In this document: one piece after another, positions 3,133 through 31,239 of the stretch
How the letters are laid out: every line of letters starts with the position of its first letter
Numbering within the stretch: position 1 is the stretch's first letter
IMG/VR virus record: IMGVR_UViG_3300036786_000192
Location: 1-32,027 of that record
From: a virus
Taxonomy: Duplodnaviria > Caudoviricetes
DNA length: 32,027 nucleotides
Strand: one strand, 5' to 3'
Notes under the pieces: model-generated
Seen by the model: only the letters and a program-made list of their open reading frames with translations
Database searches by the model: none
Told to the model about the DNA's origin: nothing
Program-made: the position numbers and the translations under genes

Positions 3133-3205
3133 ATGTTCGCGGAACTGGTTTTTGCGAACATATCATGCATGACGTGTTACAAAAAGTGAAAAATGTTAAC
3201 ACGTC
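3133..3205. promoter_or_regulatory. Two operator-like inverted repeats upstream of fic
   Basis: ATGTTCGC(3133-3140)-N13-GCGAACAT(3154-3161) and GACGTGTTA(3171-3179)-N17-TAACACGTC(3197-3205), in an AT-rich spacer. Confidence 0.55.
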
Positions 3206-3321
3206 TGGCCGCATATGCTATGCAGGGTGACGCATCTCGAGACCGACTCTCGCAAGCCGTCATGCTCGCCCTCGTCGAAAGCTTGCGCTACGCTCCGCTA
3301 GCACACAGGGGGAATAGACGC

Positions 3322-4263
3322 ATGAAATCATGGATTTTCGCGCTCGCGGCGGTCGCCGCGTGGGGATCGGCCGCTTCGGCGCGGACTGGGGCGGCGCCGG
3401 CGGTCGCCTATCGGCCGCTGGGGGTGGACGATCTCGGCATCCAGTTCGTCGACGACGGCTCGGTCCGGAAGGACGGGACGAGCCGGGATTTTTCGATGCT
3501 GGTGGTGTTCGCGCACCCGATAGCCGACGATAACGGGGCCGAATTTCTCTATGCGACGCTCCGGTCGCGGGTCGATTGCGCCGCCGGGACCGAGCAGGAC
3601 CTCTTCGCAATCTTCCACGCGAAGGACGGCACCGACCAAAGGCCGACCGTCCACCATCCGGCCGCTTCCCTCCAGCCCGGATCGGTGATGGCGGACGCCG
3701 CGGATTATGTGTGCACGGGGAGGCGCAAGGCCGCCGCCGCGGAGGGGCGGGCGATGAGCGAGGCGGAGGCGGTGCGCGTCGCGACGGGCGCCTTCGCGGT
3801 TTCGGCCCCGGCGGCCGGCGCGTCCCAACCCGTCTATCGGTTGCTGGGCGTGACCGATGAGGATGCCGAGTTTCTCGACCAGGGCTCGATCGCGAAGGAC
3901 GGAGCGCTCCGGGACTACCGGCTGCTGGTGGTGTGGGCGACGCCCAAGCTCGGGAGCGACGGCAGGACCGAGCATCCCTTTGCCAAATACCAGGCCCGGA
4001 TCGACTGCGCCGCGTGGATGTCGAGCCTGCTTTCCATCACCATCTACAGCAGGAGCGGCCCGGAAAAGCCGATCATCCTTGGCCGGGGCCCGGATCGTCT
4101 TGAGCCGGGCTCGGTCGCAGAGACCGGCGCCGACTATCTCTGCAAGGGTAAATTGGCTGCGCAGATCGCGGGCGCGCCCCTGATCACGGTGGAGGAAGCG
4201 GTCCGCTCCGCGACCATGCTTTTCGCGGGACGCAAGGACCGGCGCGGCGCGGGAGGACAGTGA
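3322..4263 (+). CDS. Secreted protein with 2 tandem surface-adhesin-E-like domains
   Basis: ATG 3322 after GGGGGA; signal peptide MKSWIFALAAVAAWGSAASA; two units with F.D..S, R(V/I)DCAA, PGSV...ADY.C. Confidence 0.7.
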   Translation: MKSWIFALAAVAAWGSAASARTGAAPAVAYRPLGVDDLGIQFVDDGSVRKDGTSRDFSMLVVFAHPIADDNGAEFLYATLRSRVDCAAGTEQDLFAIFHAKDGTDQRPTVHHPAASLQPGSVMADAADYVCTGRRKAAAAEGRAMSEAEAVRVATGAFAVSAPAAGASQPVYRLLGVTDEDAEFLDQGSIAKDGALRDYRLLVVWATPKLGSDGRTEHPFAKYQARIDCAAWMSSLLSITIYSRSGPEKPIILGRGPDRLEPGSVAETGADYLCKGKLAAQIAGAPLITVEEAVRSATMLFAGRKDRRGAGGQ

Positions 4264-4366
4264 GCGGCGCGGGGGCTGCGCCGGCTCCGGCGTTTCGCCG
4301 TCGACGCGATGCTCGCGCTCTTCGCCGACTTGCGCTAGGCTTCATCGCAAAACGGGGGGCAGGCGC

Positions 4367-5725
4367 ATGAAAGCGTGGTTTTTGGCGTTCATGGTGTTGG
4401 GGGCTTCGGCGGCTGCTGCTGCGGCGCAGTCGAGCGCCTTGCCGGAGGCGCGCTATCGGTTGATGGGCTACAGGGGCGATGAGGTTCAGTTCCTCGACGA
4501 GGGATCCGTCGACACGGACGGGACCAGGCGGGACTTTTCCTCCCTGACGGTGGACTCGGCGCCCCGGGCCGGCCCGCACGGCCGGCCGGAAGACAGCTAT
4601 GGCGTGATTCGAAGCCGGATCGATTGCGCCGCGTGGACGGTGCAGCCGCTCTCCGCGCGGGTCCATTGGCAGAGCGGCCTGGGCGAACGCGTGGCCGCCA
4701 ATCGAGCGCCCGTGGCCATCCCGGTGAATTCGTTCGCGGAGCTTTTCGCCGATTTTCTCTGCAAGGGCCGGACGGATTGGCTGATCAGGCGGTCGCATCT
4801 GGTCCGCGAAGCGGATGCGGTTCGCTCCGCGCGGCGCTTTTTCTCCGTCCCGACGGCGACGGACGCGTCGGGAGATTCGCGCTACCGCCTGCTGGATCTC
4901 GAGGACGCCGACGCCCAGCTCATCGACGAAAAGTCCATCAAGGAAGACGGCCCGCGCCGGAAATTCTCGCTGCTGATCATTTGGCCTCAACCCCGGTCCG
5001 GGGGAGGGGAAAGCGAGCCCGCCTCTCTCCACGACGAAATCCCGATGCGGGTCGATTGCGCCGCATGGACGATGCAGACCCTCTCGGGGAGGCCGAATGC
5101 GGGAAGCGGCACCGGAACGCCGCTTGTTCATGCCATCCTGCCGGGCTCGGTCGCGGAGACGGCGGCCGATTATGTCTGCAAGGGCAAGCTGGACCCCGAC
5201 ATCTCGCCGGCGAACGCCGCGAACGAAGCGCAGGCGGTGCGCGGCGCGATGCGTTTCCTCGCCGTGACGGGTTGGGGAAGCGCGCCGCCGGATCCCGCCT
5301 ACCGTCTCATCGCCGCGGACGGCGATGCGGCCAATTATCTCGACGAAAGCGCGATCGCGCGGGCCGGCGCGACCCGGGAATATTGGATTCTGGGGCTGCG
5401 GGCAAAGCCCGAACGCGACAGGTACGGCGCCGAACATCCCTATGCGAGGTACCAGCTCCGCATCGATTGCGCCGCGTGGACTACGCAGGCGCTCAAGGTG
5501 ATTCCCTATACGAAGCGCGGGCCGGACCAGCTTGTTTCGCTTGCCGCCGAGCCGCAGCGCATCGACCCGGATTCGGCGACGGAGGCCACCGCCAATTTCC
5601 TGTGCAAGGGCGAACTCGATCCGGCGATCGCGGCGAGGCACCTGGTCTCGCAGGACGAAGCGGTGCGCGAGGCGCTGAGCAATTTCGTGGCGGCCGGCCG
5701 GCCGCGCGATGCGCGCGGGAGGTGA
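4367..5725 (+). CDS. Secreted protein with 3 tandem surface-adhesin-E-like domains (paralog of upstream gene)
   Basis: Signal peptide MKAWFLAFMVLGASAAAAA; three units each with YRL, DE.S, R(I/V)DCAAWT.Q, A(D/N)(F/Y).CKG. Confidence 0.75.
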   Translation: MKAWFLAFMVLGASAAAAAAQSSALPEARYRLMGYRGDEVQFLDEGSVDTDGTRRDFSSLTVDSAPRAGPHGRPEDSYGVIRSRIDCAAWTVQPLSARVHWQSGLGERVAANRAPVAIPVNSFAELFADFLCKGRTDWLIRRSHLVREADAVRSARRFFSVPTATDASGDSRYRLLDLEDADAQLIDEKSIKEDGPRRKFSLLIIWPQPRSGGGESEPASLHDEIPMRVDCAAWTMQTLSGRPNAGSGTGTPLVHAILPGSVAETAADYVCKGKLDPDISPANAANEAQAVRGAMRFLAVTGWGSAPPDPAYRLIAADGDAANYLDESAIARAGATREYWILGLRAKPERDRYGAEHPYARYQLRIDCAAWTTQALKVIPYTKRGPDQLVSLAAEPQRIDPDSATEATANFLCKGELDPAIAARHLVSQDEAVREALSNFVAAGRPRDARGR

Positions 5726-9024: not shown

Positions 9025-10293
9025 TTGCATGAGGTCGAGATTCCGGGCGCCTTTCGGGGGTTGTTCGAGGCGCATCGCTACAAGGCCTTTTACGGCGGGC
9101 GGGGATCGGCCAAGTCGCATAGCTTTGCGACGGCTTTGGTCATCCTGGCGGCCGCGCGGCCTTTGCGGATCGTTTGCGCGCGGGAGATCCAGAACAGCTT
9201 GCGCGATTCGGTCAAGCAGCTGATCGAGGACAAGATCGCGGCGCTCGGGCTCGACGCGCATTTCGATTGCCAGAGCAAGGTGACCAGGGGCCGCAACGGC
9301 TCGCATTTTTCCTATATCGGCCTGTGGCGGAACCCGGACGCGATCAAGTCGATGGAGGGGGCCGATATCTTCTGGGGGGAGGAGGCTTCGGCTTTCTCCG
9401 AACGCTCGCTTCGGATCGTGCGGCCGACCATGCGCAAGCCGGGATCGGAATTGTGGTTCTCGTGGAACCCGGAGTTCGAGCACGATCCGGTCGACCGCTT
9501 CTTCCGCGGCGGGGCGCCGCCGCCCGACGCTTTGGTGCGCGAGGTGAGCTGGCGCGACAATCCCTGGTTCGCCGGCACGCCGCTCCAGGCCGAGATGGAC
9601 TATGATTATTCCGCCGATCCGGCGCGCGCCGCCCATGTCTGGGGCGGGTCCTATGTCAGCGCGGTCGACGGGGCTTATTATGCCGCGGCGCTCGGCGAGG
9701 CACGGGCGGCGGGGCGGATCGGCCAGGTCGCGCCCGATCCCCTGATGGCCAAGCGCGCCTTCTGGGACTTGGGGGTGAGCGATTCGACCTCGGTCTGGGT
9801 GGCGCAGTTCGTCGGGCGCGAGATCCGGGTCCTGGATTATTGCGAGGGGCAGGGGCAGCCGCTTTCTTATTATTGCGACTGGCTGCGGGCGCGCGGCCAT
9901 GGGTCGGCGCTCTGCGTGCTTCCGCATGACGGGGCGCGGCGGGACAATGTGACCGCTCTGCGCTTCGAGGACCATCTGCGCGAGGCCGGCTTCGCGGTCG
10001 AGACCGTGCCCAACCAGGGCAAGGGCGCTGCGATGCGGCGGATCGAGGCGGCGCGGCGGCTGTTCCCGGCGATCTGGTTCCACGAGGAGACGTGTCGCGA
10101 AGGGCTGAAGGCTTTGGCGGCTTATGCCGAGAAGCGGGACGACAAGAGGAATGTGGGGCTGGGGCCGGACCATAATTGGGCCTCGCATGCGGCCGATGCC
10201 TTCGGGCTGATGTGCATCGCTTATGAGGCGCCGCGGGAGCGGCGGAAGGCGGTGGAGCGGGCGGATTTCGGGGCTGGGGGGTGGATGGGGTGA
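9025..10293 (+). CDS. terL: Terminase large subunit (PBSX family-like)
   Basis: Walker A YGGRGSAKS, CAREIQNS, IKSMEG..IFWGEEA, PTMRKPGSELWFSWNP, nuclease WDLG..D and SHAADAF. TTG start after GGAGG. Confidence 0.93.
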   Translation: MHEVEIPGAFRGLFEAHRYKAFYGGRGSAKSHSFATALVILAAARPLRIVCAREIQNSLRDSVKQLIEDKIAALGLDAHFDCQSKVTRGRNGSHFSYIGLWRNPDAIKSMEGADIFWGEEASAFSERSLRIVRPTMRKPGSELWFSWNPEFEHDPVDRFFRGGAPPPDALVREVSWRDNPWFAGTPLQAEMDYDYSADPARAAHVWGGSYVSAVDGAYYAAALGEARAAGRIGQVAPDPLMAKRAFWDLGVSDSTSVWVAQFVGREIRVLDYCEGQGQPLSYYCDWLRARGHGSALCVLPHDGARRDNVTALRFEDHLREAGFAVETVPNQGKGAAMRRIEAARRLFPAIWFHEETCREGLKALAAYAEKRDDKRNVGLGPDHNWASHAADAFGLMCIAYEAPRERRKAVERADFGAGGWMG

Positions 10294-10301
10294 CCTTCTT
10301 C

Positions 10302-10509
10302 ATTCTCCCTGCGATTTCGCGGGGAGGGGGACCATGCGAAGCATGGTGGAGGGGCCTTGGCACGGCGCATGAAGGGGGCCCCTCCACCACCCTGCGGGTG
10401 GTCCCCCTCCCCTCAGAATCGAGGGGAGGATTTAAGGGCGCCCGCCTCCGCCACCCTGCGGGTGGTCCCCCTCCCCTCGGAATCGAGGGGAGGATTTAAG
10501 GGCGCCCCG
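10302..10509. repeat. REPIN-like cluster: one inverted REP plus two tandem 64-bp REP units
   Basis: Minus-orientation copy about 10302-10356; tandem units 10381-10444 and 10445-10509 differing at very few positions. Confidence 0.85.
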
Positions 10510-10533
10510 CCTTTGAAATGATGGGAGATTGGG

Positions 10534-12609
10534 ATGGGTGAGATTGCTCCTGGCGACGGTTACGACGCCGATGCCGACGACGCGGCCGAAACGCCCGACA
10601 AGATCCTTGCCGCGGCGCGGGAGGATTATCGGCGGGCGCGGGAATATTGGCAGGACAATCAGCGCGAGGCGCAGGCGGACCTGGAATTCGCGCGGCTGGG
10701 ACGGCAATGGCCGGCAGCGGTCGAGGAGCAGCGGCGGCGCGAGCATCGGCCGTGCCTCACCTTCAACAAGATGCCCTCCTTCATCCGCCAGGTCGTCAAC
10801 GATAGCCGGCAGAACAAGCCTTCGATCAAGGTCCACCCGCAGGATTCGGGCGCCGATCCGCAGGTCGCGACCATCTATGACGGGCTGATCCGCAACATCG
10901 AGGCGACCTCCGACGCCGACGTCGCCTACGACACCGCGATCGAGCATGCGGTGGGGCAGGGCTTCGGCTTCTGGCGGGTCAACACCGCTTATGCCTGCGA
11001 CGACGCTTTCGACCAGGATATCGTGATCGAGCGGATCGCCAATCCGTTCACGGTGTACGGCGATCCGCGATCGACGGCGGCGGATTCGTCGGACTGGAAC
11101 ATCGCCTTCGTCATCACGACGATGCCGAAGGACGAGTTCGAGCGGCAGTACCCGGACGCCGAATGCACGAGCTGGGAGTTCGATTTCGCCGACTGCCCGG
11201 ACTGGCTCGACGGCGACGACGTCGTCCTCGCCGAATATTGGACGCGGGAGAAGGCGGCGCACGACATCGTCGCGCTTTCGGACGGATCGATCATCGCGCT
11301 CGAGGAATTGGAGGCCGATCCGCGCCAGTTCGAGGGCGTCGAGGTCGTCGGGCGGCCGCGTACGGTCGAGACGTACAAGGTGACGCAGCGGCTGATGACC
11401 GGCGCCGAGATACTGAAGACGGTCGACTGGGCGGGCAAATATATCCCGATCGTCCCCGTTTATGGCGACGAGGTGATCGACGAGCATGGCAAGCGCCATT
11501 TCCGGTCTTTGATCCGCGACGCCAAGTCGGCGCAGGAGATGCTCAATTACTGGCGGACGACGACGACCGAGCTTGCCGCGCTCGCGCCCAAGGCGCCCTG
11601 GGTGGGCGAGCAGGGGGCGTTCGACGTCGATCCCAATTGGGACGTCGCGAACAGCGCGAGCCTTTCGAAGCTCGAATATCGCAAGGGCTCGCCGATGCCG
11701 CAGCGCCAGCCTTTCGCCGGCGTGCCGGCGGGGGCGCTGCAGGAGGCGCTGAACGCCAATGACGACATGAAGGCGATCATCGGCATTTACGATGCGTCCT
11801 TGGGCGCGCGCAGCAACGAGACGTCGGGCAAGGCGATCATGGCGCGGCAGCGGGAAGGGGACGTTTCGACCTTCCACTTCATCGACAATCTGTCGCGGGC
11901 GATCCGCCATTCGGGGCGGATCCTCCTCGACCTCATTCCCAAGGTCTATTCGACCCAGCGGATGATCCGCGTGCTCGGCGACGATCTGGCGCCGGCCAAT
12001 GCCCAGGTCGCGCCGACCGGGCAGGCGGTGACTCCGGTGGTCGGGCCGCCGCGGGCCGATCCCGCCAATCCGATGCAGCTGATGCCGCCGGCGGTGGTCG
12101 GGCATGTCTACGATCTCGCCGCGGGCAAATACGACCTCACCGTGTCGGCGGGGCCGAGCTACACGTCGCGGCGCGAGGAGGCGAACGACCTCATGATGCA
12201 GATGATGCAGGCGGCGCCGCAGGTCATTCCTTTGATCGCCGACATCTGGGTCGAGCAGCAGGACATGCCGCTTGCCGACCAGCTCGCCGATCGGCTGCGG
12301 CTGATGTTGCCGCCCCAGGCGCAGCAGGGGCCGGGCGGGGCGGGGGGCGGTGTGCCGCCGCAGGTGGCGGCGCAGATGAGCCAGCAGCAGCAGGTCATCC
12401 AGCAGGGCGCCGCGAAGCTCCAGCAGCAGGCGCAGGAGAACCAGGCGATGCAATTGCGGATCGCCCTGCTCGAGACCGAGCTCGCCAACCGCCAGAACGA
12501 GCAGGGCCTCAAGAGCCAGGAGCTGCAGGTCAAGAGCTACGACGCCGAGACGCGGCGGATCGAGGCGATGCGGCCGCAGGTGGTCGGGATGGGGGCGCAG
12601 GCGGGGTAG
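10534..12609 (+). CDS. Portal protein, P22-like
   Basis: ADLEFA..G.QW, RPCLTFNK...IRQVVN..RQN, YIPIVP.YG, N.TSGKAI.ARQ..G, F.DNL, GKYD..V..GPSY.SRR, Q-rich C-terminal coiled coil. Confidence 0.93.
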   Translation: MGEIAPGDGYDADADDAAETPDKILAAAREDYRRAREYWQDNQREAQADLEFARLGRQWPAAVEEQRRREHRPCLTFNKMPSFIRQVVNDSRQNKPSIKVHPQDSGADPQVATIYDGLIRNIEATSDADVAYDTAIEHAVGQGFGFWRVNTAYACDDAFDQDIVIERIANPFTVYGDPRSTAADSSDWNIAFVITTMPKDEFERQYPDAECTSWEFDFADCPDWLDGDDVVLAEYWTREKAAHDIVALSDGSIIALEELEADPRQFEGVEVVGRPRTVETYKVTQRLMTGAEILKTVDWAGKYIPIVPVYGDEVIDEHGKRHFRSLIRDAKSAQEMLNYWRTTTTELAALAPKAPWVGEQGAFDVDPNWDVANSASLSKLEYRKGSPMPQRQPFAGVPAGALQEALNANDDMKAIIGIYDASLGARSNETSGKAIMARQREGDVSTFHFIDNLSRAIRHSGRILLDLIPKVYSTQRMIRVLGDDLAPANAQVAPTGQAVTPVVGPPRADPANPMQLMPPAVVGHVYDLAAGKYDLTVSAGPSYTSRREEANDLMMQMMQAAPQVIPLIADIWVEQQDMPLADQLADRLRLMLPPQAQQGPGGAGGGVPPQVAAQMSQQQQVIQQGAAKLQQQAQENQAMQLRIALLETELANRQNEQGLKSQELQVKSYDAETRRIEAMRPQVVGMGAQAG

Positions 12610-14834: not shown

Positions 14835-16031
14835 ATGGCAAACAGCATTCTCACGCCCACCGCAGTGACCCGCGAGGCGCTGCGCATCCTCCACCAGAAG
14901 CTCAATTTCGTGGGCAATATCGTCCGCGAATATGATGACAGCTTCGCCAAGAAGGGCGCCCGGATCGGCGACACGCTCAAGATCCGGCTGCCCAACCAAT
15001 ATGTCGTGCGCACCGGCGCGGTGCTGGCGACGCAGGATACGAACGAGACCAGCGTGTCGCTGACCGTCGGCACCCAGAAGGGCGTCGACCTCAACTTCAC
15101 CTCGGTCGACCTCACCTTGTCGCTGGACGATTTCTCCGACCGCATCCTGCAGCCGGCGATGACCGTCCTCGCCGCGAACATCGAGGCCGACGCGCTTTCG
15201 ATGTACAAGGACGTCGCCAACAGCGTGTGGAACGGCGGATCGGCGGCGACGCTCGCCAAGGTGCTGCAGGGGCGCAAGCTCCTCCAGGATCATTTGACGC
15301 CGCTCAACGAGCGCACGGCCTTGCTCAACACGCAGGACAATGTCGACATCGTCACCGACGTCAAAGGGCTGTTCAACGCGCAGGACACGATCTCGAAGCA
15401 ATATAAGGAAGGCTATGTCGGCCGGACCGCGGGCTTCGATTTCGCGGAGAATACGTTGATCCCGGCCCATGCCCGCGGCGCCGGCAACACCGCCTATACG
15501 ACCAACACCACCGGCCTTGCGACCGACGGCACCGAATATGCCGCCATCACCGTCGCGACCGGCACCGGCACGCTGAAGAAGGGCGACGTCATCACCATCG
15601 CCGGCATCGACCGCGCGCATCCGGAATCGAAGGCGGACCAGGGCGCTTTGCGCCAGTTCGTCGTCGCCGCCGATTATGCGGGCGGGGCCGGTTCGGTTTC
15701 GATCTCGCCGAGCATCTTCCTCGGCGGGCCGAAGCAGAATTGCGTCGCCGCGACGACCTCGGCGACGGCGGCGGTGGCAATCGCCGGCACCGCCTCGACC
15801 GCGGTCGGCACCTCGCTCATGTTCCAGAAGGAAGCGTTCGCCTTCGCGACCGCCGACCTGGTCATGCCGCAGGGCGTGGACTTCGCGTCGCGCCAGGTGC
15901 TCGACGGGGTGTCGATGCGGATCGTCCGCGCATACGACATCAACAACGACAAGTTCCCGTGCCGGATCGACGTCCTCTACGGGTACAAGACGCTGCGGGC
16001 CTCTCTGGCCTGCCGGCTGCACAACAACTGA
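14835..16031 (+). CDS. Major capsid protein, P22 coat family
   Basis: MANSILTP..VTREAL..L...L.F, IGDTLKIRLP, R.L.PA...LA..I, CRIDVLYG C-terminal motif. Confidence 0.93.
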   Translation: MANSILTPTAVTREALRILHQKLNFVGNIVREYDDSFAKKGARIGDTLKIRLPNQYVVRTGAVLATQDTNETSVSLTVGTQKGVDLNFTSVDLTLSLDDFSDRILQPAMTVLAANIEADALSMYKDVANSVWNGGSAATLAKVLQGRKLLQDHLTPLNERTALLNTQDNVDIVTDVKGLFNAQDTISKQYKEGYVGRTAGFDFAENTLIPAHARGAGNTAYTTNTTGLATDGTEYAAITVATGTGTLKKGDVITIAGIDRAHPESKADQGALRQFVVAADYAGGAGSVSISPSIFLGGPKQNCVAATTSATAAVAIAGTASTAVGTSLMFQKEAFAFATADLVMPQGVDFASRQVLDGVSMRIVRAYDINNDKFPCRIDVLYGYKTLRASLACRLHNN

Positions 16032-21338: not shown

Positions 21339-22802
21339 GTGGCCGATCTCATCACCTTTCTTCCACCGCCGGGGCTCAGCTCGGACGACACGACCTTCGA
21401 GGATGAGGGGAAGTGGGCGGACGGCTCGAACGTGCGCTTCCGGCAGGGCAAGCCGGAATGCATCGGCGGCTGGTCTTTGCTGATCTCCGGCCTCGCCGCG
21501 TCGATCACCGACATGCTCGGCTATATTTACGATTCCATCCCGCACGCCGTTTATGCGGGCGGGTGGAAGCTCTATGTCGCCAACGAGCTCGACACGACGC
21601 CGACGGACGTCACCCCGACCGGCCTCACCAGCGACGACACCTCCGCCAATTGGGCGCTCGCCGCCTTCGGATCGACGCTGCTTGCCTCGCAACGCCTCGG
21701 CAAGCTCTACGCCATGCCGGTGCCGGGAACGCCCGCGGCGCCGGTGGCCACCGCGCCGGCGCAGATCATGTCGATGCTGGTGACGCAGGAACGCCAGGTG
21801 CTCGCCTTCGGCTGCAACGAGGAGGTGTCGGGCATCTTCAACCCGGCCTGCATCCGCGGCAGCGACCTCGAAGACTATACGGTCTGGACGACGCTCCCGA
21901 CCAACAATTGCTTCGAGCATGTCCTCGACGACGGCGGCATGATCTTCGCCGCGGCTTTGGTCGGCGCCTATGTCGGGGTGTGGACGACGAGCGGCCTGTG
22001 GATGGGCCAGTTCATCGGCGATCCGAGCCAGACCTACCGCTTCGACCGGGTCGATACCGGCGTCGGCATCGTCGCCACCGGCGCGGTCGCGATCGACAAG
22101 GGCATCGCTTACTGGGTCGGCATCGACCTCAATTTCTACCGCTGGGAGCCGGGCGCGGCGCCCGAGATGCTCGCCTGCCCGATTTCCAAGGATTTCAAGG
22201 AGAACGTCGTCTCGGGGGCCTCGATCCGGGTCGAGGTCAATCCCTCGTTCAACGAGATCTGGATCCTCTATCCCGACAATCGCGACACGCCGGGCGTCAA
22301 TTGCAGCCGCTACGTCGCTTATTGCGTCGACGAATCGGCGGCGGCCGCGGCGGCGGGCGGCATGGCGGTCTGGTATCGGGGCCAGCTCGCGCGGGATTCG
22401 ATGCTGCCGCCGGGGCCGCTCTCGCAGGTGCTCGGCGCCCAGACCTTGATGGGCGACGTCGCCGGCAACATCTACACGCACGAAATCCCGACCGTCGCCC
22501 CGGATGCCTGGTTCATCCAGTCGGCGGACCAGTATCTCGGCAACAGCCGGACGCGGATGATGGTGCGCGGGTTCGTTCCGGATTTCGATTATCAGTCGGG
22601 CGACGTCACGCTCACCCTGCTGATGCGCGACCGGCCGCGGTCGACGCCGGTGACCAAGGGCCCCTACACGATTCCCAACACCGCGGCGAAGCTGGATTTC
22701 CGCGCCTCGGGCCAGATCGCCGCGGTCCGGCTCGACGGCACCGCCACCTATATGCGGCTCGGCAAGCCCCTGTTCGACACGGCTCCGCTCGGCGAGCGGT
22801 GA
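21339..22802 (+). CDS. Tail nozzle / DNA-stabilisation protein (gp10 / tubular protein B-like beta-propeller)
   Basis: GTG after GGAGGA; PPG...D.T....G.W.D..NVRFR.G.PE.IGGW start; FNEIW..YP; FR.SG....VR C-terminal motif. Confidence 0.72.
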   Translation: MADLITFLPPPGLSSDDTTFEDEGKWADGSNVRFRQGKPECIGGWSLLISGLAASITDMLGYIYDSIPHAVYAGGWKLYVANELDTTPTDVTPTGLTSDDTSANWALAAFGSTLLASQRLGKLYAMPVPGTPAAPVATAPAQIMSMLVTQERQVLAFGCNEEVSGIFNPACIRGSDLEDYTVWTTLPTNNCFEHVLDDGGMIFAAALVGAYVGVWTTSGLWMGQFIGDPSQTYRFDRVDTGVGIVATGAVAIDKGIAYWVGIDLNFYRWEPGAAPEMLACPISKDFKENVVSGASIRVEVNPSFNEIWILYPDNRDTPGVNCSRYVAYCVDESAAAAAAGGMAVWYRGQLARDSMLPPGPLSQVLGAQTLMGDVAGNIYTHEIPTVAPDAWFIQSADQYLGNSRTRMMVRGFVPDFDYQSGDVTLTLLMRDRPRSTPVTKGPYTIPNTAAKLDFRASGQIAAVRLDGTATYMRLGKPLFDTAPLGER

Positions 22803-22955: not shown

Positions 22956-23327
22956 ATGATCCCCGTCATGTGGTGCGACTATCTGCCGTGGCGGGCGTCG
23001 TTCGAGCGGGCGCTCGATCCGCGTTTCTTCACGATCGACTATCTCGATCGCCGCATCAATGACGGGAGCGTCAAGCTGTTCGTCTGCCGCGCGGCGGCTC
23101 TGGTCGTCGAGCTCAAAGCCTATCCGACCGGAAATTTCGACGGCCATGTGCTGATCGCGGCGGGCGATCCGGCGGCGATCGTCGGCACCTTGCGGCCCGA
23201 GGCGGAGGCCTGGCTGAAGGGCATCGGCGCGCTCGGCGCCCTGGTCGAGAGCCGGCCGGGCTGGGCGCGGCTGCTTCGCGAACATGGCTATCGCACCCAC
23301 CAGCAGGTGGTGAGGAAGGATCTGTAG
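22956..23327 (+). CDS. Small GNAT-like tail-region protein
   Basis: SRPGWARLL...GY...VRKDL motif typical of small proteins between nozzle and ejection genes; GGGGAG RBS. Confidence 0.6.
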   Translation: MIPVMWCDYLPWRASFERALDPRFFTIDYLDRRINDGSVKLFVCRAAALVVELKAYPTGNFDGHVLIAAGDPAAIVGTLRPEAEAWLKGIGALGALVESRPGWARLLREHGYRTHQQVVRKDL

Positions 23328-25073
23328 ATGGACCAATGGACCCAGCGTTTCGCCGACATCAAGGACCAACTCTCCCAGTCCGGCCTCAACGCCGCCCAGC
23401 AAGGCCAGGCGCTGAGCGGCTGGGTGGCGGCCAATCCGCGGCCGGCCAATGCGGCGCCGCCGCCGATGCTTTCGGGCGATGCCCTTGCCGGCGCGCCGGC
23501 CGGCCCGATGAGCGCGGCGACCGCTTCCGCACCGCCGCCCTTGTTGCCCCAAATGGCGGCGAGTCCCGCGGCGAAGCCCGCGCCGGCGCTTGCGCCCAAT
23601 GTCGCGCCGGTGCCTTTGCCCAGGCCGCCGGCCAACGCGCCGGTTCTGCCGCCGGCCCTTGCCCCGGCCGCGCCGGGCCTTGGCGCGTCACTGGCCATGC
23701 CGCCGCTCGGCGGGCCGAACCTGGCGCGGGCGCCGATCGTCTCGGCCGACGCGCCGATCGCCGCGTCGCCCTTGCTGTCGCCGACGCCGATCCTGCCGCG
23801 GGCACCGCTTATTCCGCAGGTGCCGCCCCCGACCGCGCCGGCCGTGCCGGCGGCGCCTTCCGTGGCGAACATGCGCGTCGGCGCGCCGGTCCAGGCTTCG
23901 TCGCCCGCGCCGGTCGTGCCCGCGCCGAAGCCCGCCGCCATCCCCGCCGCGCCGCTCCCGTCGCCCGCGCTTATTCGTCCGGCCGCCTCGCCGGCGCCGG
24001 CGCCGCTGCCGGTGCAGCCGAGCCCGGCGCCGGCGCCGCCCATGCCCAGGCCAATTTTGTCGCCGACGCCGGCGCCGCTGCCGGCCCCGCTGCCGGCGGG
24101 CGGGCCGAACGCGGCGAACCAGAACGAGAGCTCGAACATCGACGCGCGCGTCAACGCGATCCTGGCCCGCAACAACGCGCCTTCTCCGCCATCGCCAACG
24201 CTCCCTCCGCCTCCGCCGCCGCGGCCGGCCCCGGCGCCCCCGCCGGTCCCGGTCGTGCCGCCGCTTCCGAAGCCGGTTCCTGCTCCGGTGGCTCCGGTGG
24301 CGCCCGCGCCGCCGCCGGCCGCAATGCCCATGCCGCCGGCGCCGCCTCTTGTGGCCCCGCCGGCTCCGGTCGTCGCGCATCCGGTTCCGGCGCCGCCCGT
24401 GCCTGTGCCCGCGCCCGCTCCGGTGCCGAAGCCGGTGCTTCCGCCGGCGCCGCCGCCGATGCTGCCTTCGGCGCCGATCGTGAGCGTGCCGCCGCCGCCT
24501 CTGCCCAGGCCGCCGGTGAGCGCGCCGGTGCTTCCGCCCGCGCCGCCGCCGCCTCCGCCGCCCCGGCCGGCGCCGATGCCCCCGCCGATGCCGGCCGTGC
24601 CGCCACCGCCCGGAACGCCGTCGACGCCGGCGACGATCGCGCCGTTGCCGACCCAGATGCCGACCGTGTCGACGATGTCGCCGGCGCCCAAGGCTCCCGC
24701 CACCGCGAACATCGACACCCATGTCAATGCGCCGACCCAGGTTTCGCTGCCCGTCTATCAGCCGCCGGCTCTGCCCTCCTTCCTCGACGGCGGGCTGATC
24801 CCGAGCTTCACCGGCTACACGCCGGCGCCGTCGATGCCGGGCTATGCGATGCCGCGCACCGGCCACCCGTTCGCGCCGACGCCCGCCGCCCAGAATGCGC
24901 CGCTGCTGCCGGGCTTCAACAACCCGTTCGTCGGGGCGGCCGGGGGCGGCGGCGGGATCGCTTATGGGGTTGGGGGCGCGATCGCCGGCACCGGCTACGA
25001 TCCGAGCGATCCGACGGGGCTGGGGGCGCTTTACGGCCAGCTGCTGGTGCCGAAGATCACGCCGCAGGTTTAG
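23328..25073 (+). CDS. Extremely proline-rich low-complexity protein
   Basis: ATG directly follows upstream stop, with AGGAAGGA RBS; CCG/GCG codon bias in this frame; non-repetitive termini. Confidence 0.65.
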   Translation: MDQWTQRFADIKDQLSQSGLNAAQQGQALSGWVAANPRPANAAPPPMLSGDALAGAPAGPMSAATASAPPPLLPQMAASPAAKPAPALAPNVAPVPLPRPPANAPVLPPALAPAAPGLGASLAMPPLGGPNLARAPIVSADAPIAASPLLSPTPILPRAPLIPQVPPPTAPAVPAAPSVANMRVGAPVQASSPAPVVPAPKPAAIPAAPLPSPALIRPAASPAPAPLPVQPSPAPAPPMPRPILSPTPAPLPAPLPAGGPNAANQNESSNIDARVNAILARNNAPSPPSPTLPPPPPPRPAPAPPPVPVVPPLPKPVPAPVAPVAPAPPPAAMPMPPAPPLVAPPAPVVAHPVPAPPVPVPAPAPVPKPVLPPAPPPMLPSAPIVSVPPPPLPRPPVSAPVLPPAPPPPPPPRPAPMPPPMPAVPPPPGTPSTPATIAPLPTQMPTVSTMSPAPKAPATANIDTHVNAPTQVSLPVYQPPALPSFLDGGLIPSFTGYTPAPSMPGYAMPRTGHPFAPTPAAQNAPLLPGFNNPFVGAAGGGGGIAYGVGGAIAGTGYDPSDPTGLGALYGQLLVPKITPQV

Positions 25074-25111: not shown

Positions 25112-25186
25112 CACCCTCACCCAACTTCGCCTAGGCTCCTTCGTCGCCAAGGCTTCGTATCCCTCTCCCCTCAAGGGAGAGGGGGG
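25112..25186 (+). repeat. REP-like element
   Basis: caccctcacccaacttcgcctaggct...aaggcttcgtatccctctcccctcaagggagagggg. Confidence 0.65.
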
Positions 25187-25226: not shown

Positions 25227-28200
25227 ATGGGCCTTTCTTCTTCTTCGTCCAACTCGACGAGCAACCAGCAGACCAATCAGACCGCCACGACCACCCCGGT
25301 CGCGCCGTCCTGGCTGACCCAGGGGCTGCAAAATTATGTCGGGTCGATCGGCAGCTTCGCCGATTCCGATCCGAACAGCTTCGTCGCCGGCGCCTCGCCG
25401 CTCGAGCAGCAGGCGTATAACAATGCCGACGAGCTTGGCGGGCTCAACAACAATTTCAGCACCGCGTCCAAGATCGCGCTCGGCGTCGCCAACGCGCCGG
25501 CGAGCACGGTCCCGTCCGCCTCCGGCTACGGCGCCGCGCAGGGGGGGGTGTCGACCTATAATCCGGCGACCTTGTCCAACCCGTTCGCGGCGGGCGCCAG
25601 CGGCTATAATGCCGCCCAGACGACCGGCACCTCTTATTCGGCGCCGACCTTCACGCCGGTCAATGTCGGGGCGGGGCTGGATCTCAATGGATTTTCGCCA
25701 TCCTCATCGTCCTCGTCCGGATCCTCGCCGTTCACGATCACGCCTTTCTCCTCGACCTCGCCGCAATCGATCACCGCCGGCGGTTCCATTCCGCAGCCGC
25801 TGACCGCCAATCCGAACGCCGCGCAGGGCGGCTCCTTCACCCTCTCGCCCTTCTCGGCGACGTCGCCACAGGCGGATTTCAACGCGGCTTCGTCCTCGGC
25901 CATTCCCTATGCTTTGACCTCGGCCTCGGGCTACAATTCAGCCAATGCCGCGGCGACCGGCTATGCCGCGCCCAATCTCGGCGCGGCGAGCCAGGCGGCC
26001 GGCGCCGGCTACAATGCCGCCACCGCCAATTCCTCGGGCTATGCGGTGCCGTCGCTCGCCAATGCGGCGCTTGCCACCGGCACCGGCTTCAACGCCGCGC
26101 TCGCCAATGCATCGGGCTATGCCGCGCCCAATCTCGGCGCGGCGAGCCAGGCGACCGGCGCCGGCTACAATGCCGCCAATGCCGCCGCCGCCGGCTATGC
26201 GGTGCCGTCGCTCGGCGCCGCGAGCCAGGCGACCGGCGCCGGCTACAATGCCGCCAACGCGGCCGCGAACGGCTATTCGGTGGCGTCGCTCGGCAATGCC
26301 GCGCTCGCTTCGGGCCAGGGCTATAATGCCGCGCAGGCGGGGCCGGTGACGATCGCGCCGGCCGCCAATGCGGCCGCGTCCAACGCCCAGGCGGCGAGCC
26401 TGCTCACCAACCTCAATGGCTACATGAACCCCTATCTCGGCCAGGTCGTCAACGCGAGCATGGCCGATTTCGACCAGAATGCCGCCGTGCAGCAGGCCCA
26501 GCTCAAGGCGCAGGGCGCGGCCGCCGGCGCCTTCGGAGGATCGCGCTTCGGAGTCGCCCAGGCGAGCCTGGACGACGATCTCGCCCGCGCCCGCGCCACC
26601 ACCGAATCCGGCCTCCTCTCCAACGCCTTCAACACTGCGGCCGGCCTTTCCCAGTCGGACGCCGCCAACCGCCAGCAGGCGAGCCTGTTCAACGCCCAGA
26701 ACCAGACCGGCGTATCGCAGGCCAATGCCGCCGCCGCCAACCAGCGCGCGCTCAGCCAGGCGCAGCTCAGCGCCCAGCTCGGCCTCGCCAACCAGTCCGC
26801 GACCAACCAGGCGTCGGAGTTCGGTGCCAATGCGCAGAACGCGGCGAGCCTCGCCAACCAGTCGGCGAACAACCAGTTCGCGCTCACCCGCGCCGGCATG
26901 CAGAATGACGAATCCCAGTTCGCCGCCTCCGCGCAGAACCAGGCCTCGCTCGCCAATGCCGCCGCCGCCAACCAGGCCGGCCAGTTCGGCGCCAATGCGC
27001 AGAATGCGGCGAGCCTCGCCAACCAGTCGGCGAACAACCAGTTCGCCTTGACCCGTGCGGGCATGCAGAATGACGAGGCGCAATTCGCCGCCGGCGCGCA
27101 GAACCAGGCCTCGCTCGCCAATGCCGCCGCCGCCAACCAGGCCGGCCAGTTCGGCGCCTTGGCGAGGAACAATGCCAGCCTCGCCAACCAATCGGCCAAC
27201 AACCAGTTCGCCCTGACCCGCGCCCAGCAGCAGGCCGACGCCTCGCAATTCGGGGCGGCGGCGCAGAACCAGGCGGCGCTCGCCAACGCCTCGGCGCGCA
27301 ACCAGGCGAGCCTGTTCAACGCCCAGGCGACCAATGCCGCCGGCCTTTCCAACCAGAGCGCGCTCAACCAGTTCGCCCTGACCCGCACCGGCATGCAGAA
27401 CGACCAGGCGCAATTCGCGGCTTCGGCGGCGAACCAGGCCGCGCTCGCCAATGCGGCGTCGCGTAACCAGGCAGCGCAGTTCGGCGCGACGGCCCAGAAT
27501 AATGCCAGCCTCGCCAACCAGTCCGCCAACAACCAGTTCGCGCTGACCCGGGCCCAGCAGCAGGCCGACGCCTCGCAATTCGGGGCGTCGGCGGCGAACC
27601 AGGCGGCGCTCGCCAATGCGGCGGCGGCCAACCAGGCGGGCCAGTTCGGCGCGGCGGCGCGCAACACCGCCAGCCTCGCCAACCAGGGCGCCGTCAACCA
27701 GATCGGGCTCGCCCAGGCGCAGATGCAGAACGACGCCGCCAAATATGGGGCGGATACGGCGAACCAGATGGCGCTCGCCAATGCCGCCGCGCAGAACCAG
27801 GCGGCGCAGTTCGGCGCGACGGCGCTGAACAATGCCGGCCTCGCCAACCAGAGCGCCGGCAACCAGTTCGCGCTCGCCCAGGCGCAGATGCAGAACGACG
27901 CCTCGCAGTACAATGCGACCGCCAACAATGCGTCGATGCAGGCCTATCTCGCCGCGCTCAACCAGTCGGCGCAGTTCAACGCGGGCGCGCAGAACCAGGC
28001 GAGCCTGTTCAACGCCCAGCAGAATGAGGCCGGGCTCGCCCGCCAGCTCCAGGCGGCCAATGCGCTCAGCCAATATGGCAGCGATTACGGCACCAACACC
28101 CGCGCGGATCTGGGCGCGATGTCGCAGCTCGGCGCCCAGCAGCAGCAGATCGAGCAGGCTTATGCCCTGGCGCCGCTCGCCCAGCTCCAGGCGGTCGGCC

Positions 28201-28361
28201 AATTGTTCGGCGCGACGCCCTACCAGGCGCTGATCGGGCAGACGATCAACACCAACGGCACCAGCAGCGGGACGAGCTCGACTACCACGACACCGAGCCT
28301 GTTCTCGATGCTCATGCAGGCGGGCCAGAACGCGGCTAATGCCTATGCGGCGGGGGCTTGA
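25227..28361 (+). CDS. DNA ejection / pilot protein with expanded repeats
   Basis: GGAGG RBS; S/T/Q-rich start then P.W; core YMNPY..QVV and AGAFGGSR..VA; A/N/Q-rich 11-residue repeats. Confidence 0.75.
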   Translation: MGLSSSSSNSTSNQQTNQTATTTPVAPSWLTQGLQNYVGSIGSFADSDPNSFVAGASPLEQQAYNNADELGGLNNNFSTASKIALGVANAPASTVPSASGYGAAQGGVSTYNPATLSNPFAAGASGYNAAQTTGTSYSAPTFTPVNVGAGLDLNGFSPSSSSSSGSSPFTITPFSSTSPQSITAGGSIPQPLTANPNAAQGGSFTLSPFSATSPQADFNAASSSAIPYALTSASGYNSANAAATGYAAPNLGAASQAAGAGYNAATANSSGYAVPSLANAALATGTGFNAALANASGYAAPNLGAASQATGAGYNAANAAAAGYAVPSLGAASQATGAGYNAANAAANGYSVASLGNAALASGQGYNAAQAGPVTIAPAANAAASNAQAASLLTNLNGYMNPYLGQVVNASMADFDQNAAVQQAQLKAQGAAAGAFGGSRFGVAQASLDDDLARARATTESGLLSNAFNTAAGLSQSDAANRQQASLFNAQNQTGVSQANAAAANQRALSQAQLSAQLGLANQSATNQASEFGANAQNAASLANQSANNQFALTRAGMQNDESQFAASAQNQASLANAAAANQAGQFGANAQNAASLANQSANNQFALTRAGMQNDEAQFAAGAQNQASLANAAAANQAGQFGALARNNASLANQSANNQFALTRAQQQADASQFGAAAQNQAALANASARNQASLFNAQATNAAGLSNQSALNQFALTRTGMQNDQAQFAASAANQAALANAASRNQAAQFGATAQNNASLANQSANNQFALTRAQQQADASQFGASAANQAALANAAAANQAGQFGAAARNTASLANQGAVNQIGLAQAQMQNDAAKYGADTANQMALANAAAQNQAAQFGATALNNAGLANQSAGNQFALAQAQMQNDASQYNATANNASMQAYLAALNQSAQFNAGAQNQASLFNAQQNEAGLARQLQAANALSQYGSDYGTNTRADLGAMSQLGAQQQQIEQAYALAPLAQLQAVGQLFGATPYQALIGQTINTNGTSSGTSSTTTTPSLFSMLMQAGQNAANAYAAGA
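25929..26318 (+). repeat. Intragenic tandem repeat, 5 x 78 bp (26 aa)
   Basis: Units start at 25929, 26007, 26085, 26163, 26241; two more diverged units at 25524 and 25602. Confidence 0.9.
26805..27959 (+). repeat. Intragenic tandem repeat, 7 x 165 bp (55 aa = 5 hendecads)
   Basis: AACCAG unit starts at 26805, 26970, 27135, 27300, 27465, 27630, 27795 (partial at 27960). Confidence 0.9.
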
Positions 28362-29070: not shown

Positions 29071-31239
29071 ATGGCCTATCAGGACGGCGATTCCAGGACC
29101 TATGGCGGCGTCACCTATCTGCGCCAGGACGGCCTCTGGTATCCGCAGCCCGATCCCGTGCTCGCGGCCGCCCAAGGCGGCGATGGCGGCGCGCCCGGCG
29201 ATGGCAGCCAGGGCAACGCGCCCGATGCGTCGGCGCAGGCCGATCCCGACCAGCTCACCGGTCAGATCGCCCAGGTCAAGGACCAGTTCGTCAACGCGAC
29301 CGATCCCGGCCAGAAGGTCAACGCGCTGTGGCAACTCGGCTCACTGATCATGGCGGCGAGCCAGCAGCCGCAGCAGGGCGGGGGAAGCGACGGCAGCGGC
29401 GGTTCAACCGGCAATCCGCCACAGCCGGCCGCGCTTTTCCAGCCGGGGCAGAACCAGCAGAATCCGCCGCCCTTCATTGCCGGGCTGTCCGGCGCGCCCG
29501 ACGACCCGGCCGGCGCGCTCCAGCAGCTCGGCGCGCCGCAGGGATCGGATGACGGCGGCAACGGCACTGCGCAGCCGCCGCTGCCCCCGCCGCTCCTCGG
29601 CCAAGGTTCCGACAATGACGGCAACGACGGATCGGGCATTCCCCTCCTACCGTCCGATCAGCAGGGTCCGCCGCCGTTCATAGCGGGGCTTCCGGGCGCG
29701 CCCGGCGATGTGGCCAGCGCCCTGCAGCAGCTCACCACCCAGCAGGGCGCGACGGCTCCGGGTCTCGGCGGCGGCAACGGTCCGCAGCCACCCGCCTCCT
29801 TGTTCGCTGCCGGCGGGCCAGGCGGCACGAGCGGCGGAGCGCAGTCCGGCGGTCTGTTCGGCGCGCCAAGCCAGTCCGCCGGGCCGCCGCTGCCGCCGGA
29901 CCAGCAGAACCCGCCGCCCTTCGTCGCGGGACTTCCCGGCGCACCCGGCGACGTAGCCAGCATCCTCCAGCAGCTCGGTACGCCGCAAGGGGCAGGGGCT
30001 TCCGGCGACGGGCCGGACGCGCCGCAGCCGCCGGGCTCGTTGCCCGTCACCAATGCACCCGGCACCGGGAGCGACGATCAGCAGCAGCCCGGCGGCTTGC
30101 TTGGCATGCCGGGCCAGCCCGTCGTACCGCAGGCGCCCGCGCCGGGAGGGCCGGGCCCCCAGGGAAGGCCGCCTTTCATCCTGGCCTCCGCGCAGCAGCC
30201 CTTCCAGCCGAATGGCTTGCCGCCCGGTGGCGCTTTTCCAGGGCAGGGTGCCCGCGGTTCCCAACCCCCTTTTGGCGGCGCACCTGCCGGATTCCGTCTG
30301 GCTTCGCTGGATTCGCCGTCGGACGGACAGGCGGTCCTGCGGACCTACGGCTCTCCATTGGATCCGGTTCTTGGGCCGCCGGCCAGCATCGCCCGCGCGC
30401 CGATCAAGGGTGCGCCGGCAGCAACTGCGACGCGGCAACCGACAGCCGCGCCAGGAGCGGCCACCCCCCAGCCGGCACAGGACCCGTTGCATGCCGAGTA
30501 TAATTTTCAAGCCAACACCAACCTGGCGGTGGGGAGCAGTAAACTCACTCCAGATCAGAAAGCCGACCGCATCTATCAGATTGCGAAGCAACGCGGCCGC
30601 CCACTCGATCCGCACATGCGGCCGTGGCTCAAGGGCCACGCAAACGCGCCGATGATCGGGAACATGCACATCGGGGAAGTCATCTCGCTCGCCCAGCGGG
30701 GCACCAGATTACGCAACCGGCTGATGCAGTTCGGATTCACTCCCGCCGCCGCGGCAGCGATGGCGGCCAACGCGATGGTGGAAAGCTATGGCTATTATCG
30801 GTCTCCACAGCTGAGTGGCGGACCCGGCTATGGCCTCTGGCAATGGTCGCCTTATCGGCGGGGCTTATACGAAACGCTGAAGAAAAAGCAGAACAAAACG
30901 CTAAAGCAAAATCAGGACGTAAGCTTCTCAGCTGCTAATGAGGATGACCAGATCCGGTTCATGATCTGGGAAATGCAGAATCAGCACCCCTACCATGATG
31001 CGTGGGCGGCGCTGCACTCCAATCAGAGTGCGGGGCAGATGGCGGCCAAGGTCGCAATGGATTACGAAGGAATGGCGAACAAGACGGGAGATCCCGAAAA
31101 ACGGGCCGCAATCGCGGATCTGCTGAGCAGCATTCCCGTCGATCCTCGGATGAATCTGGCCGCGCCGTCGAGTCCGCCACCGGAGGTCGACGCCTTTCTG
31201 CGGCGCAAGGCTGCCAGTGCGCGGTCAGTCGGGCGCTGA
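29071..31239 (+). CDS. Ejection-type virion protein: P/Q/G-rich repeats plus C-terminal phage tail lysozyme (Phage_lysozyme2-like) domain
   Basis: AGGAGG RBS; GF...AAAA..AN...ES, GYGLWQW...R, Q..F...E, YE motifs of the tail-lysozyme family. Confidence 0.8.
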   Translation: MAYQDGDSRTYGGVTYLRQDGLWYPQPDPVLAAAQGGDGGAPGDGSQGNAPDASAQADPDQLTGQIAQVKDQFVNATDPGQKVNALWQLGSLIMAASQQPQQGGGSDGSGGSTGNPPQPAALFQPGQNQQNPPPFIAGLSGAPDDPAGALQQLGAPQGSDDGGNGTAQPPLPPPLLGQGSDNDGNDGSGIPLLPSDQQGPPPFIAGLPGAPGDVASALQQLTTQQGATAPGLGGGNGPQPPASLFAAGGPGGTSGGAQSGGLFGAPSQSAGPPLPPDQQNPPPFVAGLPGAPGDVASILQQLGTPQGAGASGDGPDAPQPPGSLPVTNAPGTGSDDQQQPGGLLGMPGQPVVPQAPAPGGPGPQGRPPFILASAQQPFQPNGLPPGGAFPGQGARGSQPPFGGAPAGFRLASLDSPSDGQAVLRTYGSPLDPVLGPPASIARAPIKGAPAATATRQPTAAPGAATPQPAQDPLHAEYNFQANTNLAVGSSKLTPDQKADRIYQIAKQRGRPLDPHMRPWLKGHANAPMIGNMHIGEVISLAQRGTRLRNRLMQFGFTPAAAAAMAANAMVESYGYYRSPQLSGGPGYGLWQWSPYRRGLYETLKKKQNKTLKQNQDVSFSAANEDDQIRFMIWEMQNQHPYHDAWAALHSNQSAGQMAAKVAMDYEGMANKTGDPEKRAAIADLLSSIPVDPRMNLAAPSSPPPEVDAFLRRKAASARSVGR

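Follow-up and report, generated by a model that had tools for sequence, protein, structure and literature searches.

The 1044-amino-acid product of one gene in the analyzed virus DNA (a single stretch of 32,027 nucleotides, here called the window) carries two unrelated repeat arms on either side of a conserved core, and comparison of its relatives indicates that whenever one arm gains or loses units the other does so too, one unit matching one, with the order of units mirrored about the core. Length, order and covariation strongly imply that one of the arms, in extended form, lies bound along the other, which is helical, and we consider the predicted fold-back pairing of the two arms very probable. 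The elementary pair is about 5 N-terminal residues per 11 C-terminal residues (one hendecad), and the window protein has 42 such pairs.

Results

Genomic context and family

The window includes a podovirus-type head-tail module, which also contains scaffold, SU10-type adaptor and fibre-like genes. The genes considered here were as follows:

9025-10293: terminase, in the podovirus-type head-tail module
10534-12609: P22-like portal, in the same module
14835-16031: P22-like coat, in the same module
21339-22802, plus strand: tail hub (nozzle) gene, Pa223 gp59 homologue, from a phmmer match to 9nwi_Y
22956-23327, plus strand: small gene where P22 has gp14/acetyltransferase, assigned by position and size only
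25227-28361, plus strand: hairpin-protein gene, predicted first ejection protein, an ORF of 1044 amino acids
28363-28956, plus strand: likely second ejection protein, 197 amino acids, from ORF and position
29071-31239, plus strand: likely ejection protein with a phage tail lysozyme domain (PF18013), 722 amino acids

A GGAGG motif lies directly 5' of the start of the hairpin-protein gene. An opposite-strand ORF of 875 amino acids was rejected, with homologues, the ribosome-binding site and a GC3 of 0.88 favoring the plus frame. The hub gene matched 9nwi_Y, of a 513-amino-acid, six-chain PDB entry, with an E value of 3e-13. The Pa223 paper deposits 9NWI and models the hub gp59 there as residues 1-513; because the length and this deposit list agree, 9nwi_Y was taken to be the Pa223 tail hub. 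The hub gene was matched in 99 loci, and the small gene, which weakly matched phrog_25629, had counterparts in 24. The hairpin-protein gene is the third gene 3' of the hub, with a Pro-rich ORF interposed at the window locus, and its slot, downstream of the hub and the small gene and before other internal virion genes, is that of the phrog_4287/gp56-like genes. The 197-amino-acid product had no family match in Pfam, PHROG or NCBIfam, while the 722-amino-acid product matched PF18013 with an E value of 1.5e-20.

No integrase was found on the contig, which stops 242 bases beyond the window. Matches were present in 10 of 156 genomes of the genus, as expected for a prophage, and so few matching genomes make a domesticated, GTA-like element unlikely. 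Since close relatives bear Sphingomonadales names, an alphaproteobacterium is the probable host. In the best public run, which may be the source sample, all contig pieces among the matches listed (eight) were identical to the window, with zero differences; each of these pieces is too short to cover an array from end to end, and the number of units in the window therefore rests on the assembly. Sequence and gene order make it likely that the window protein serves a short-tailed prophage as its first ejection protein.

On its own, the window protein had no match in Pfam, PHROG or NCBIfam, phrog_4287 included. The link to phrog_4287 passes through shorter homologues; the relatives P0140 and P0177, both free of the S74 domain, do match this profile. 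Family HMMs built from the relatives matched gp27 of the Sinorhizobium phage phiM5 (E=3e-24) and gp81 of the Pelagibacter phage HTVC023P (E=5e-13), and HHalign to gp56 of the Bruynoghevirus Pa223 and to LUZ24 gp53 gave 93% (E=3e-7), with 0.1% for the reversed control. The core is also homologous to Ochrobactrum phage OH p40, Caulobacter phage GB2A gp64 and an Octadecabacter phage gp18. These profile alignments identify the window protein as a remote homologue of Pa223 gp56 and LUZ24 gp53. Together with gene position, homology to Pa223 gp56 and phiM5 gp27 supports the label of ejection protein that the gene had been given in the original prediction. Annotation of phiM5 gp27 records its detection in particles. 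The available parts of the Pa223 account place gp56 in virions by mass spectrometry and propose an outer-membrane channel, with a hollow nonamer in AF3; they do not mention paired arms. The phrog_4287 proteins, annotated "DNA ejection protein", share the core and the slot downstream of the hub, but Pa223 gp56, LUZ24 gp53, phiM5 gp27 and HTVC023P gp81 are only 278-468 amino acids long, with arms short or absent. No sequence homology to P22 gp7 (phrog_598) was detected: HHalign against a single gp7 sequence gave 0.1-0.2% and neither family HMM matched, so that any homology would be very remote.

Foldseek against the PDB gave no match at an E value of 0.001 or below, and its viral matches were uncharacterised phage proteins only. 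The best VIA-align hits (Z=9.2) were generic hairpins, and the core of an orthologue model aligned to residues 38-139 of a T7 tail-complex chain with Z=8.4, tied with unrelated helical hairpins. ESM Atlas returned viral clusters at 0.93-0.94. A PDB sequence search yielded low-complexity matches only and none to phiX174 H. Given its tailed-phage context with P22-like portal and coat, the window protein appears to lie outside the microvirus H pilot proteins.

Architecture of the window protein

The protein was divided into the following parts:

25227-25496, plus strand: N-terminal domain (residues 1-90), with a Ser/Thr-rich start and three or four helices
25524-25679, plus strand: outer N units N7 and N6 (residues 100-151), divergent 26-residue units
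25680-25928, plus strand: 83-residue Ser/Pro/Thr-rich insert (residues 152-234), a predicted loop-out without a C partner
25929-26396, plus strand: inner N-arm (residues 235-390), five 26-residue units and near-core segments, predicted extended chain
26397-26651, plus strand: conserved core (residues 391-475, YMNPY...AFGGSR), helical hairpin with its turn at residues 433-438
26652-28037, plus strand: C-arm (residues 476-937), 42 in-register hendecads, predicted continuous helix of about 69 nm
28038-28361, plus strand: C-terminal domain (residues 938-1044), with a Thr-rich linker and then a mildly hydrophobic helix at its end

The seven 26-residue N units (five contiguous and two outer) and seven 55-residue C units of the original prediction were found at the coordinates it had given. 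The five inner N units occupy residues 235-364 (25929-26318), each built as 5+5+5+5+6, and the C units, inside the C-arm, occupy residues 531-915 (26817-27971). TRF reported the corresponding gene as containing 78/156-bp and 165/330-bp arrays. The 11-residue register is unbroken across all 42 hendecads (residues 476-937), far beyond the seven 55-residue units. The C-arm has zero Pro and 32% Asn plus Gln, with L/Q, A, G/A and N at hendecad positions a, d, e and h, while the extended N-arm is rich in Ala, Gly and Tyr and contains 4% Pro. The spacing from NPY to FGG in the core was constant in 156/156 motif-matched proteins and in 86/89 new ones. Orthologues of 473 amino acids retain one outer-type N unit and one C unit.

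The 83-residue insert, which was absent from the earlier description, splits the inner from the outer N units and is composed of 28% Ser and 12% Pro.

AF2 monomers of the window protein and of one orthologue had a helical C-arm, a helical hairpin in the core and a nonhelical N-arm. In both, most of the N-arm had a pLDDT below 50, and the arm is hence not placed. Helices in the N-terminal domain were modelled at residues 28-45, 58-72 and 74-88. The sole two strands in the window model, residues 18-22 and 1005-1009, fit with termini that meet. A hydrophobicity scan found no strong transmembrane segment in the protein; the best 15-residue mean at the C terminus was a modest 1.1.

The geometry agrees with an extended chain lying on a helix, as originally proposed: with standard rise values, 217 paired N residues along 693 Å of helix correspond to 3.19 Å per residue. 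This value falls in the polyproline-II to beta range. With 42 hendecads, the modelled stalk is about 69 nm long, and the earlier estimate of a conduit of about 58 nm is revised accordingly.

Mirror order and the pairing code

Counted outward from the core, the N units read V.SL, VPSL, APNL, VPSL, APNL and the C units GMQND, GMQND, QQQAD, GMQND, QQQAD, just as first described. The motif xAN(A/S)S is likewise confined to N3 and N4, C3 and C4 end in Arg, and the outermost two units are the most divergent on both sides. For the inner five units, mirror order gave r=0.45 at the protein level, with 12/120 permutations equally good, and 24/120 at the DNA level; with the phase shifted one hendecad earlier it ranked at 4/120. 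Parallel order was the worst possible (r=-0.82, 120/120), and the silent sites of the units were not mirrored (27/120). This within-window Mantel test depends on phase and was not relied on. The window gene alone is thus suggestive of mirror order, and the relatives settle it.

We trained an unsupervised model in which each hendecad is given one N segment of 5 or 6 residues, counted outward from the core. The learned code paired QFG- and RYG-type hendecads with segments ending in GY, and LAQAG-type hendecads with APxL. It was cross-validated sixfold by core-sequence groups on the 83 proteins that keep the register and have 10 hendecads or more, leaving out two N-short group C proteins and one group A protein without a valid path. 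Held-out proteins scored higher in mirror than in reversed order in 49/57, 18/18 and 8/8 cases (75/83 together), where the group A training sets include relatives up to 70% core-identical to the held-out proteins and, group B being strongly periodic, its reversed control mainly tests phase. Mirror order exceeded all 60 shuffles in 34/57, 14/18 and 0/8 cases. It failed to beat the reversed order in 8/57, and the code fails on several divergent proteins. However, the code transferred from group A to group B, which share at most 52% core identity. The window protein scored 57.3, versus 6.3±8.4 when shuffled, 44.1 when reversed and 7.4 when shifted by one. Without any instruction, the model skipped the 83-residue insert and assigned the outer units N7 and N6 to hendecads 33-41. 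The cross-validated code supports the mirror pairing of N and C units that had been predicted.

A model-free mapping of 55 insert-free proteins gave a similar picture: an aromatic residue at hendecad position b faced an N aromatic at a frequency of 0.77, versus 0.43±0.03 in shuffled arms, and 0/300 shuffles were as high. Per protein, the aromatic densities of the two arms were not significantly correlated (r=0.18, p=0.18). An early hypothesis, in which large residues of the N-arm would sit opposite small ones of the C-arm, was abandoned, with N aromatics mapping onto aromatic-bearing hendecads. These mappings point to a 5:11 pairing whose exact register is approximate.

Mutual information was calculated over 214 proteins (effective number, 173). 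At the core turn, all 13 of the top covarying pairs fell on the antiparallel diagonal (i+j 866-874). Between the N- and C-terminal domains 15/16 top pairs were antiparallel (i+j 1027-1041), and in the near-core arms 15/16 lay along a line of slope 2.1; these last two bands were picked after the data had been viewed and cover 21% and 27% of possible pairs. Control blocks were without a diagonal, and columns 996-997 rank high there too, so that edge artefacts are possible. The pattern indicates antiparallel contact in three places: the turn of the core, the arm segments next to the core, and the two termini. The N-terminal domain is predicted to form an antiparallel pair with its C-terminal counterpart. 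Sequence covariation and structure models, both computational, thus point to a fold-back hairpin with a central turn, as in the gp14/gp7 class.

Covariation at the far end also bears on the possibility that the N-arm is a built-in chaperone, which would cover the helix in the head and peel off at ejection, leaving a final tube of helices only. Such an arm would give identical length and order coupling, it was not placed by AF2, and ejection proteins refold strongly between states according to the available parts of the published accounts. However, the antiparallel covariation of the terminal domains fits a lasting hairpin, and P22 gp7* is still folded back after ejection in the accessible part of its description (bioRxiv 10.64898/2026.09.03.749273). 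We therefore give this reading a low probability and retain the lasting hairpin.

Arm lengths among relatives

Core relatives numbered 2130 at 50% clustering (E≤0.001). The original prediction had named equal numbers of N and C units in orthologues as its test, and when lengths were counted, the arms co-varied in three groups (A, the marine group B, and C); the outcome that would have refuted it, uncorrelated unit numbers, was clearly not observed. Lengths were measured between HMM or regex anchors flanking each arm. Only first-round or regex anchors were used; iterated C-domain HMMs were excluded because they had drifted into the repeats, with some anchors off by 34 residues. Both anchors were found in 123/219 first-round proteins, and among these 123 the C-arm length modulo 11 fell in one class in 94 and in the +4 class in 17.

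In group A, the two arm lengths were strongly correlated (rho=0.96, n=121). A line, N=52+0.47(C-93), was drawn from the first-round data of this group, with a tolerance of 8 residues. Among the 104 group A proteins with a C-arm of at least 93 residues, none fell below the line, 65 were within 8 residues of it and 39 were above. A fresh set of 127 later-arriving proteins, 89 of which had both anchors and 73 a C-arm of at least 93 residues, behaved in the same way: 0 of the 73 were below, 49 within and 24 above, while at least 14 fell below the line in all 5000 permutations. The slope of this envelope is 5.3-5.4 N residues per hendecad. The window protein itself lies about 80 residues above the N:C line, an excess explained by the 83-residue insert; with the insert subtracted, it falls on the line.

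The other groups were more exact. Group B gave r=0.9999 and 5.01 residues per hendecad in 28 proteins, some of them near-identical and with one group A protein taken out by hand, and follows N=21+10n and C=65+22n over C-arms of 65 to 483 residues. Anchors were found for 21 of 24 group C proteins, and 18 of the 21 lay exactly on a 21:44 line; two of the exceptions were one N unit short and one had two extra, which may reflect mistakes in assembly or arms that truly lack a match. On a tree of 149 tips built from the core only, the arms changed in the same direction in 123/130 informative contrasts and in 34/34 sister pairs that differ in C length, and the slope was matched within 4 residues in 20 of these 34.

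Higher-order units differ across relatives (26:55, 10:22, 21:44 and 16:33). Thus, the 26:55 unit pair on which the original prediction was based is real in the window but is one of several such units built on the elementary pair of about 5:11, with 42 pairs instead of 7. Its further claim that the arms must expand in paired steps did not hold, as N excess was tolerated in 39/104 and 24/73 proteins. Surplus sequence is common in the N-arm but rare in the C-arm, so expansion need not be simultaneous.

These comparisons largely refute the explanation that the arms do not interact and that unstable repeats expand in the same lineages through shared mutation pressure or drift, which we consider extremely improbable. 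In its favor, both arrays are tandem repeats, and the silent-site histories of the window units are unmirrored. However, the exact slopes in separate groups, the one-sided envelope and the agreement of sister pairs all speak against it, as do the transfer of the code from group A to group B and the antiparallel covariation.

Discussion

The explanation that we favor, and hold to be probable, is that the window protein is a first ejection protein whose fold-back hairpin would assemble in several copies into a DNA-conducting tube with a length set by matched units; the conduit is the part that we infer, by analogy with other phages. The protein would leave the head first at infection. Its core turn, predicted by analogy to dock in the tail hub, would stay there while both arms run together toward the cell, the extended N strand lying antiparallel along the hendecad helix. 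By comparison with P22 gp7*, T7 gp14 and phiKMV-like gp41, several copies (6-12) may form the tube wall, in which the N strands would brace the grooves between thin Ala/Asn/Gln helices. Both termini would face the cell and be paired at the outer membrane, which the C terminus would enter. The main task of the stalk, about 69 nm long, would be to span a thick layer on the outer surface.

Several known systems share parts of this arrangement. In the available part of its description, the P22 gp7* monomer folds back, with a central fingertip (residues 90-126) docked in the hub and the C terminus in the outer membrane, and the extracellular channel is made of 12 such monomers (bioRxiv 10.64898/2026.09.03.749273). 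By inference the window protein resembles it as a fold-back first ejection protein with a hub-docked turn, but gp7* has 229 amino acids, both of its arms are helical, and it belongs to a separate PHROG (598). The accessible parts of other reports describe T7 gp14 and phiKMV-like gp41 as helical hairpins, which form a lining of the nozzle and make the tail longer. The gp14/gp7 class has hydrophobic membrane helices; the C-terminal helices seen here are only mildly hydrophobic, which counts against the favored explanation. Sizes differ as well: the sections available of a review give 181-240 amino acids for the T7 gp14 class, with size variation below 30%, whereas the family of the window protein spans about 270-1100. 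A stalk of two different repeats is known from the streptococcal antigen I/II proteins (SpaP, SspB and AspA), in which, in the portion of the source available, two different repeat regions surround a central domain and an alpha-helix is paired with a polyproline helix (PMC3178794). However, antigen I/II is an adhesin of the cell wall, and its helix precedes its extended chain, the reverse of the order in the window protein; it forms no tube, and no homology is implied.

The original prediction had instead pointed to the phiX174 H tube. The likeness in amide-rich hendecad helices stands, and the H tube carries DNA, but the analogy is loose: H belongs to an ssDNA phage, and the available text describes a decamer of single helices, 17 nm long, with 3 hendecads and 11 heptads and without a partner strand. 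P22 gp7*, T7 gp14 and the antigen I/II stalk are closer analogues. A related proposal is that the protein forms an H-like tube crossing the outer membrane, periplasm and inner membrane and takes over the work of later ejection proteins. The Asn/Gln-rich hendecad helix resembles that of H, as far as the published description available goes, and in group A the downstream genes are short (the next gene encodes 106-206 amino acids). In group B, however, the next three genes encode about 130, 390 and 650 amino acids while the arm grows sevenfold, from 65 to 483 residues, and they do not shrink with arm growth (rho=-0.28, p=0.23, n=20). Because these genes keep their size, the arm does not seem to replace later tunnel proteins, which points to extracellular stand-off and not to a substitute periplasmic tunnel. 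In addition, 69 nm exceeds the 50 nm of the whole P22 channel, and a strong transmembrane segment is absent. An H-like tube through all the layers is accordingly very improbable.

The main rival, because of the S74 domain, accepts the hairpin but makes it a solid trimeric rod, a coiled coil whose grooves hold the N strands like leashes, which would act as a needle, probe or ruler and carry no DNA. An S74-like motif was found at the C-terminal end in 51/304 and 21/127 homologues (72/431 together, about one sixth), and this domain explains why cultured soil and marine members are often annotated as tailspikes or tail fibres. S74 chaperone domains assemble trimers, and their presence hints at trimers and not at 6- to 12-mers. 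Positions a, d, e and h are by convention the core positions of hendecads, and here their residues could pack as a small core. In addition, no needle gene was identified in the head-tail module. Against a rod, S74 (PF13884) is absent from the window copy and from most homologues. Pa223 has a separate needle, gp58, beside its homologous gp56, which models as a channel, and in P22, T7 and phiKMV-like phages the protein ejected first is a hairpin docked in the hub, 6 or 12 copies of which make a tube, all according to the parts of these reports that are available. Overall, we regard the trimeric rod as unlikely and the DNA-conducting tube as the better account.

The one-sided envelope suggests how two arms coded far apart might grow: N-arm slack would arise first, a C duplication would then use the slack, and selection would remove C excess. 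The unmirrored silent sites argue against single coupled expansion events. However, the inserts inspected in group A are mostly unrelated low-complexity sequence and not spare units, and group B shows no N slack, both of which speak against such a step model.

The class of first ejection proteins that form hub-docked hairpins was already known, as was a stalk made of a helix and an extended repeat arm, in antigen I/II. What we did not find in the literature, searched mostly as open papers and in their main text, is any account of paired or matched arms in phage ejection proteins, and thus an ejection hairpin with a modular stalk length and matched arms appears to be new. The available part of a podovirus phylogeny paper largely passes over these genes.

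Short-tailed phages must bridge the gap between tail and membrane, and the first ejection protein has been thought, in the accessible part of the review, to be near-constant in size. The family described here is large (2130 clusters), and cultured phages from soil and sea are among its members. In its broadest form, which we put at about even odds of being right, our proposal is that a strand-on-helix zipper builds the DNA-delivery extension across a very large podovirus family, with a length that can be set anywhere between near zero and about 70 nm in increments of 1.65 nm: a tape measure in which the ruler would itself be the tube, adjusted to how thick the host surface is. The length rule sets the arm over a roughly tenfold range, and ejection reach would be readable from sequence. 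It becomes testable whether this reach tracks the thickness of the capsule, S-layer or lipopolysaccharide. N slack arising first would show a way for a fold-back protein to grow even though its halves are coded far apart, and the 5:11 code might serve as a rule in designing long rods or tubes of protein.

Other features of the window

Outside the hairpin gene, the window carries the following features:

Window 3193-5725 (+) and 1979-3124 (-): two genes that encode adhesin-E-like domains and a third with a Fic domain, in the interval from the replication gene to the terminase
Window 10381-10512 and 25160-25185: mutually similar GC-rich palindromes of the CCCTCTCCCC...GGGGAG type, in intergenic gaps
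Window 23328-25073 (+): a very Pro-rich open reading frame of 581 aa, flanked by the small gene and the hairpin gene

The adhesin-E-like and Fic-domain genes are probably accessory cargo. The palindrome at 10381-10512 is a 64-bp tandem pair, and these elements are similar to small repeats of alphaproteobacteria. The Pro-rich frame may encode an extra virion protein. Its residues 440 to 534 were 54 to 57% conserved in three close loci only (L015, L002, and L020, the last two likely being one and the same contig), and the frame was missing from loci L009 and L021.

Variation among hairpin-protein homologues

About one sixth of the homologues carried an S74 self-cleaving chaperone domain fused at the C terminus, with a patchy distribution across the sequence groups (for example, proteins P0017 and P0176, locus L009, and phiM5 gp27). 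It is because of this fused domain that homologues in cultured phages are often annotated as "tailspike" or "tail fibre." One genome (G015) had two near-identical copies of the hairpin gene; in one of them (L007, G015:C2:2236-5631), the open frame spans the core onward only, and thus the N-arm of this copy is frameshifted or misassembled.

On the N-terminal side, separate upstream genes were found in the marine group (group B):

L143:11162-11815: gene with an N-terminal-domain-like start
L014:3040-3855: gene with an N-terminal-domain-like start

Since the start of such a gene gives a weak HMM match (domain E=0.0025) to the window protein's N-terminal domain, the hairpin gene may be split in this group. 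Pfam family PF25296 ("Decapeptide repeat region") matched residues 128 to 196 of the group B protein P0048 below the Pfam cutoff, and, because this match falls on the N-arm, the family may represent the N-arm of the hairpin-protein system.

The 83-aa insert of the window protein (window 25680-25928) has its own motif in two copies, aromatic-T-x-x-P-F-S-x-T-S-P-Q, unrelated to the N segment/hendecad pairing pattern. Large extra sequences of 150 to 500 aa were present in or before the N-arm of many homologues (P0025, P0031, P0041, P0045, and the P0049-P0083 group), some with acidic D-x-N/D-x-D-G motifs. These extra sequences could be cargo domains displayed on the stalk.
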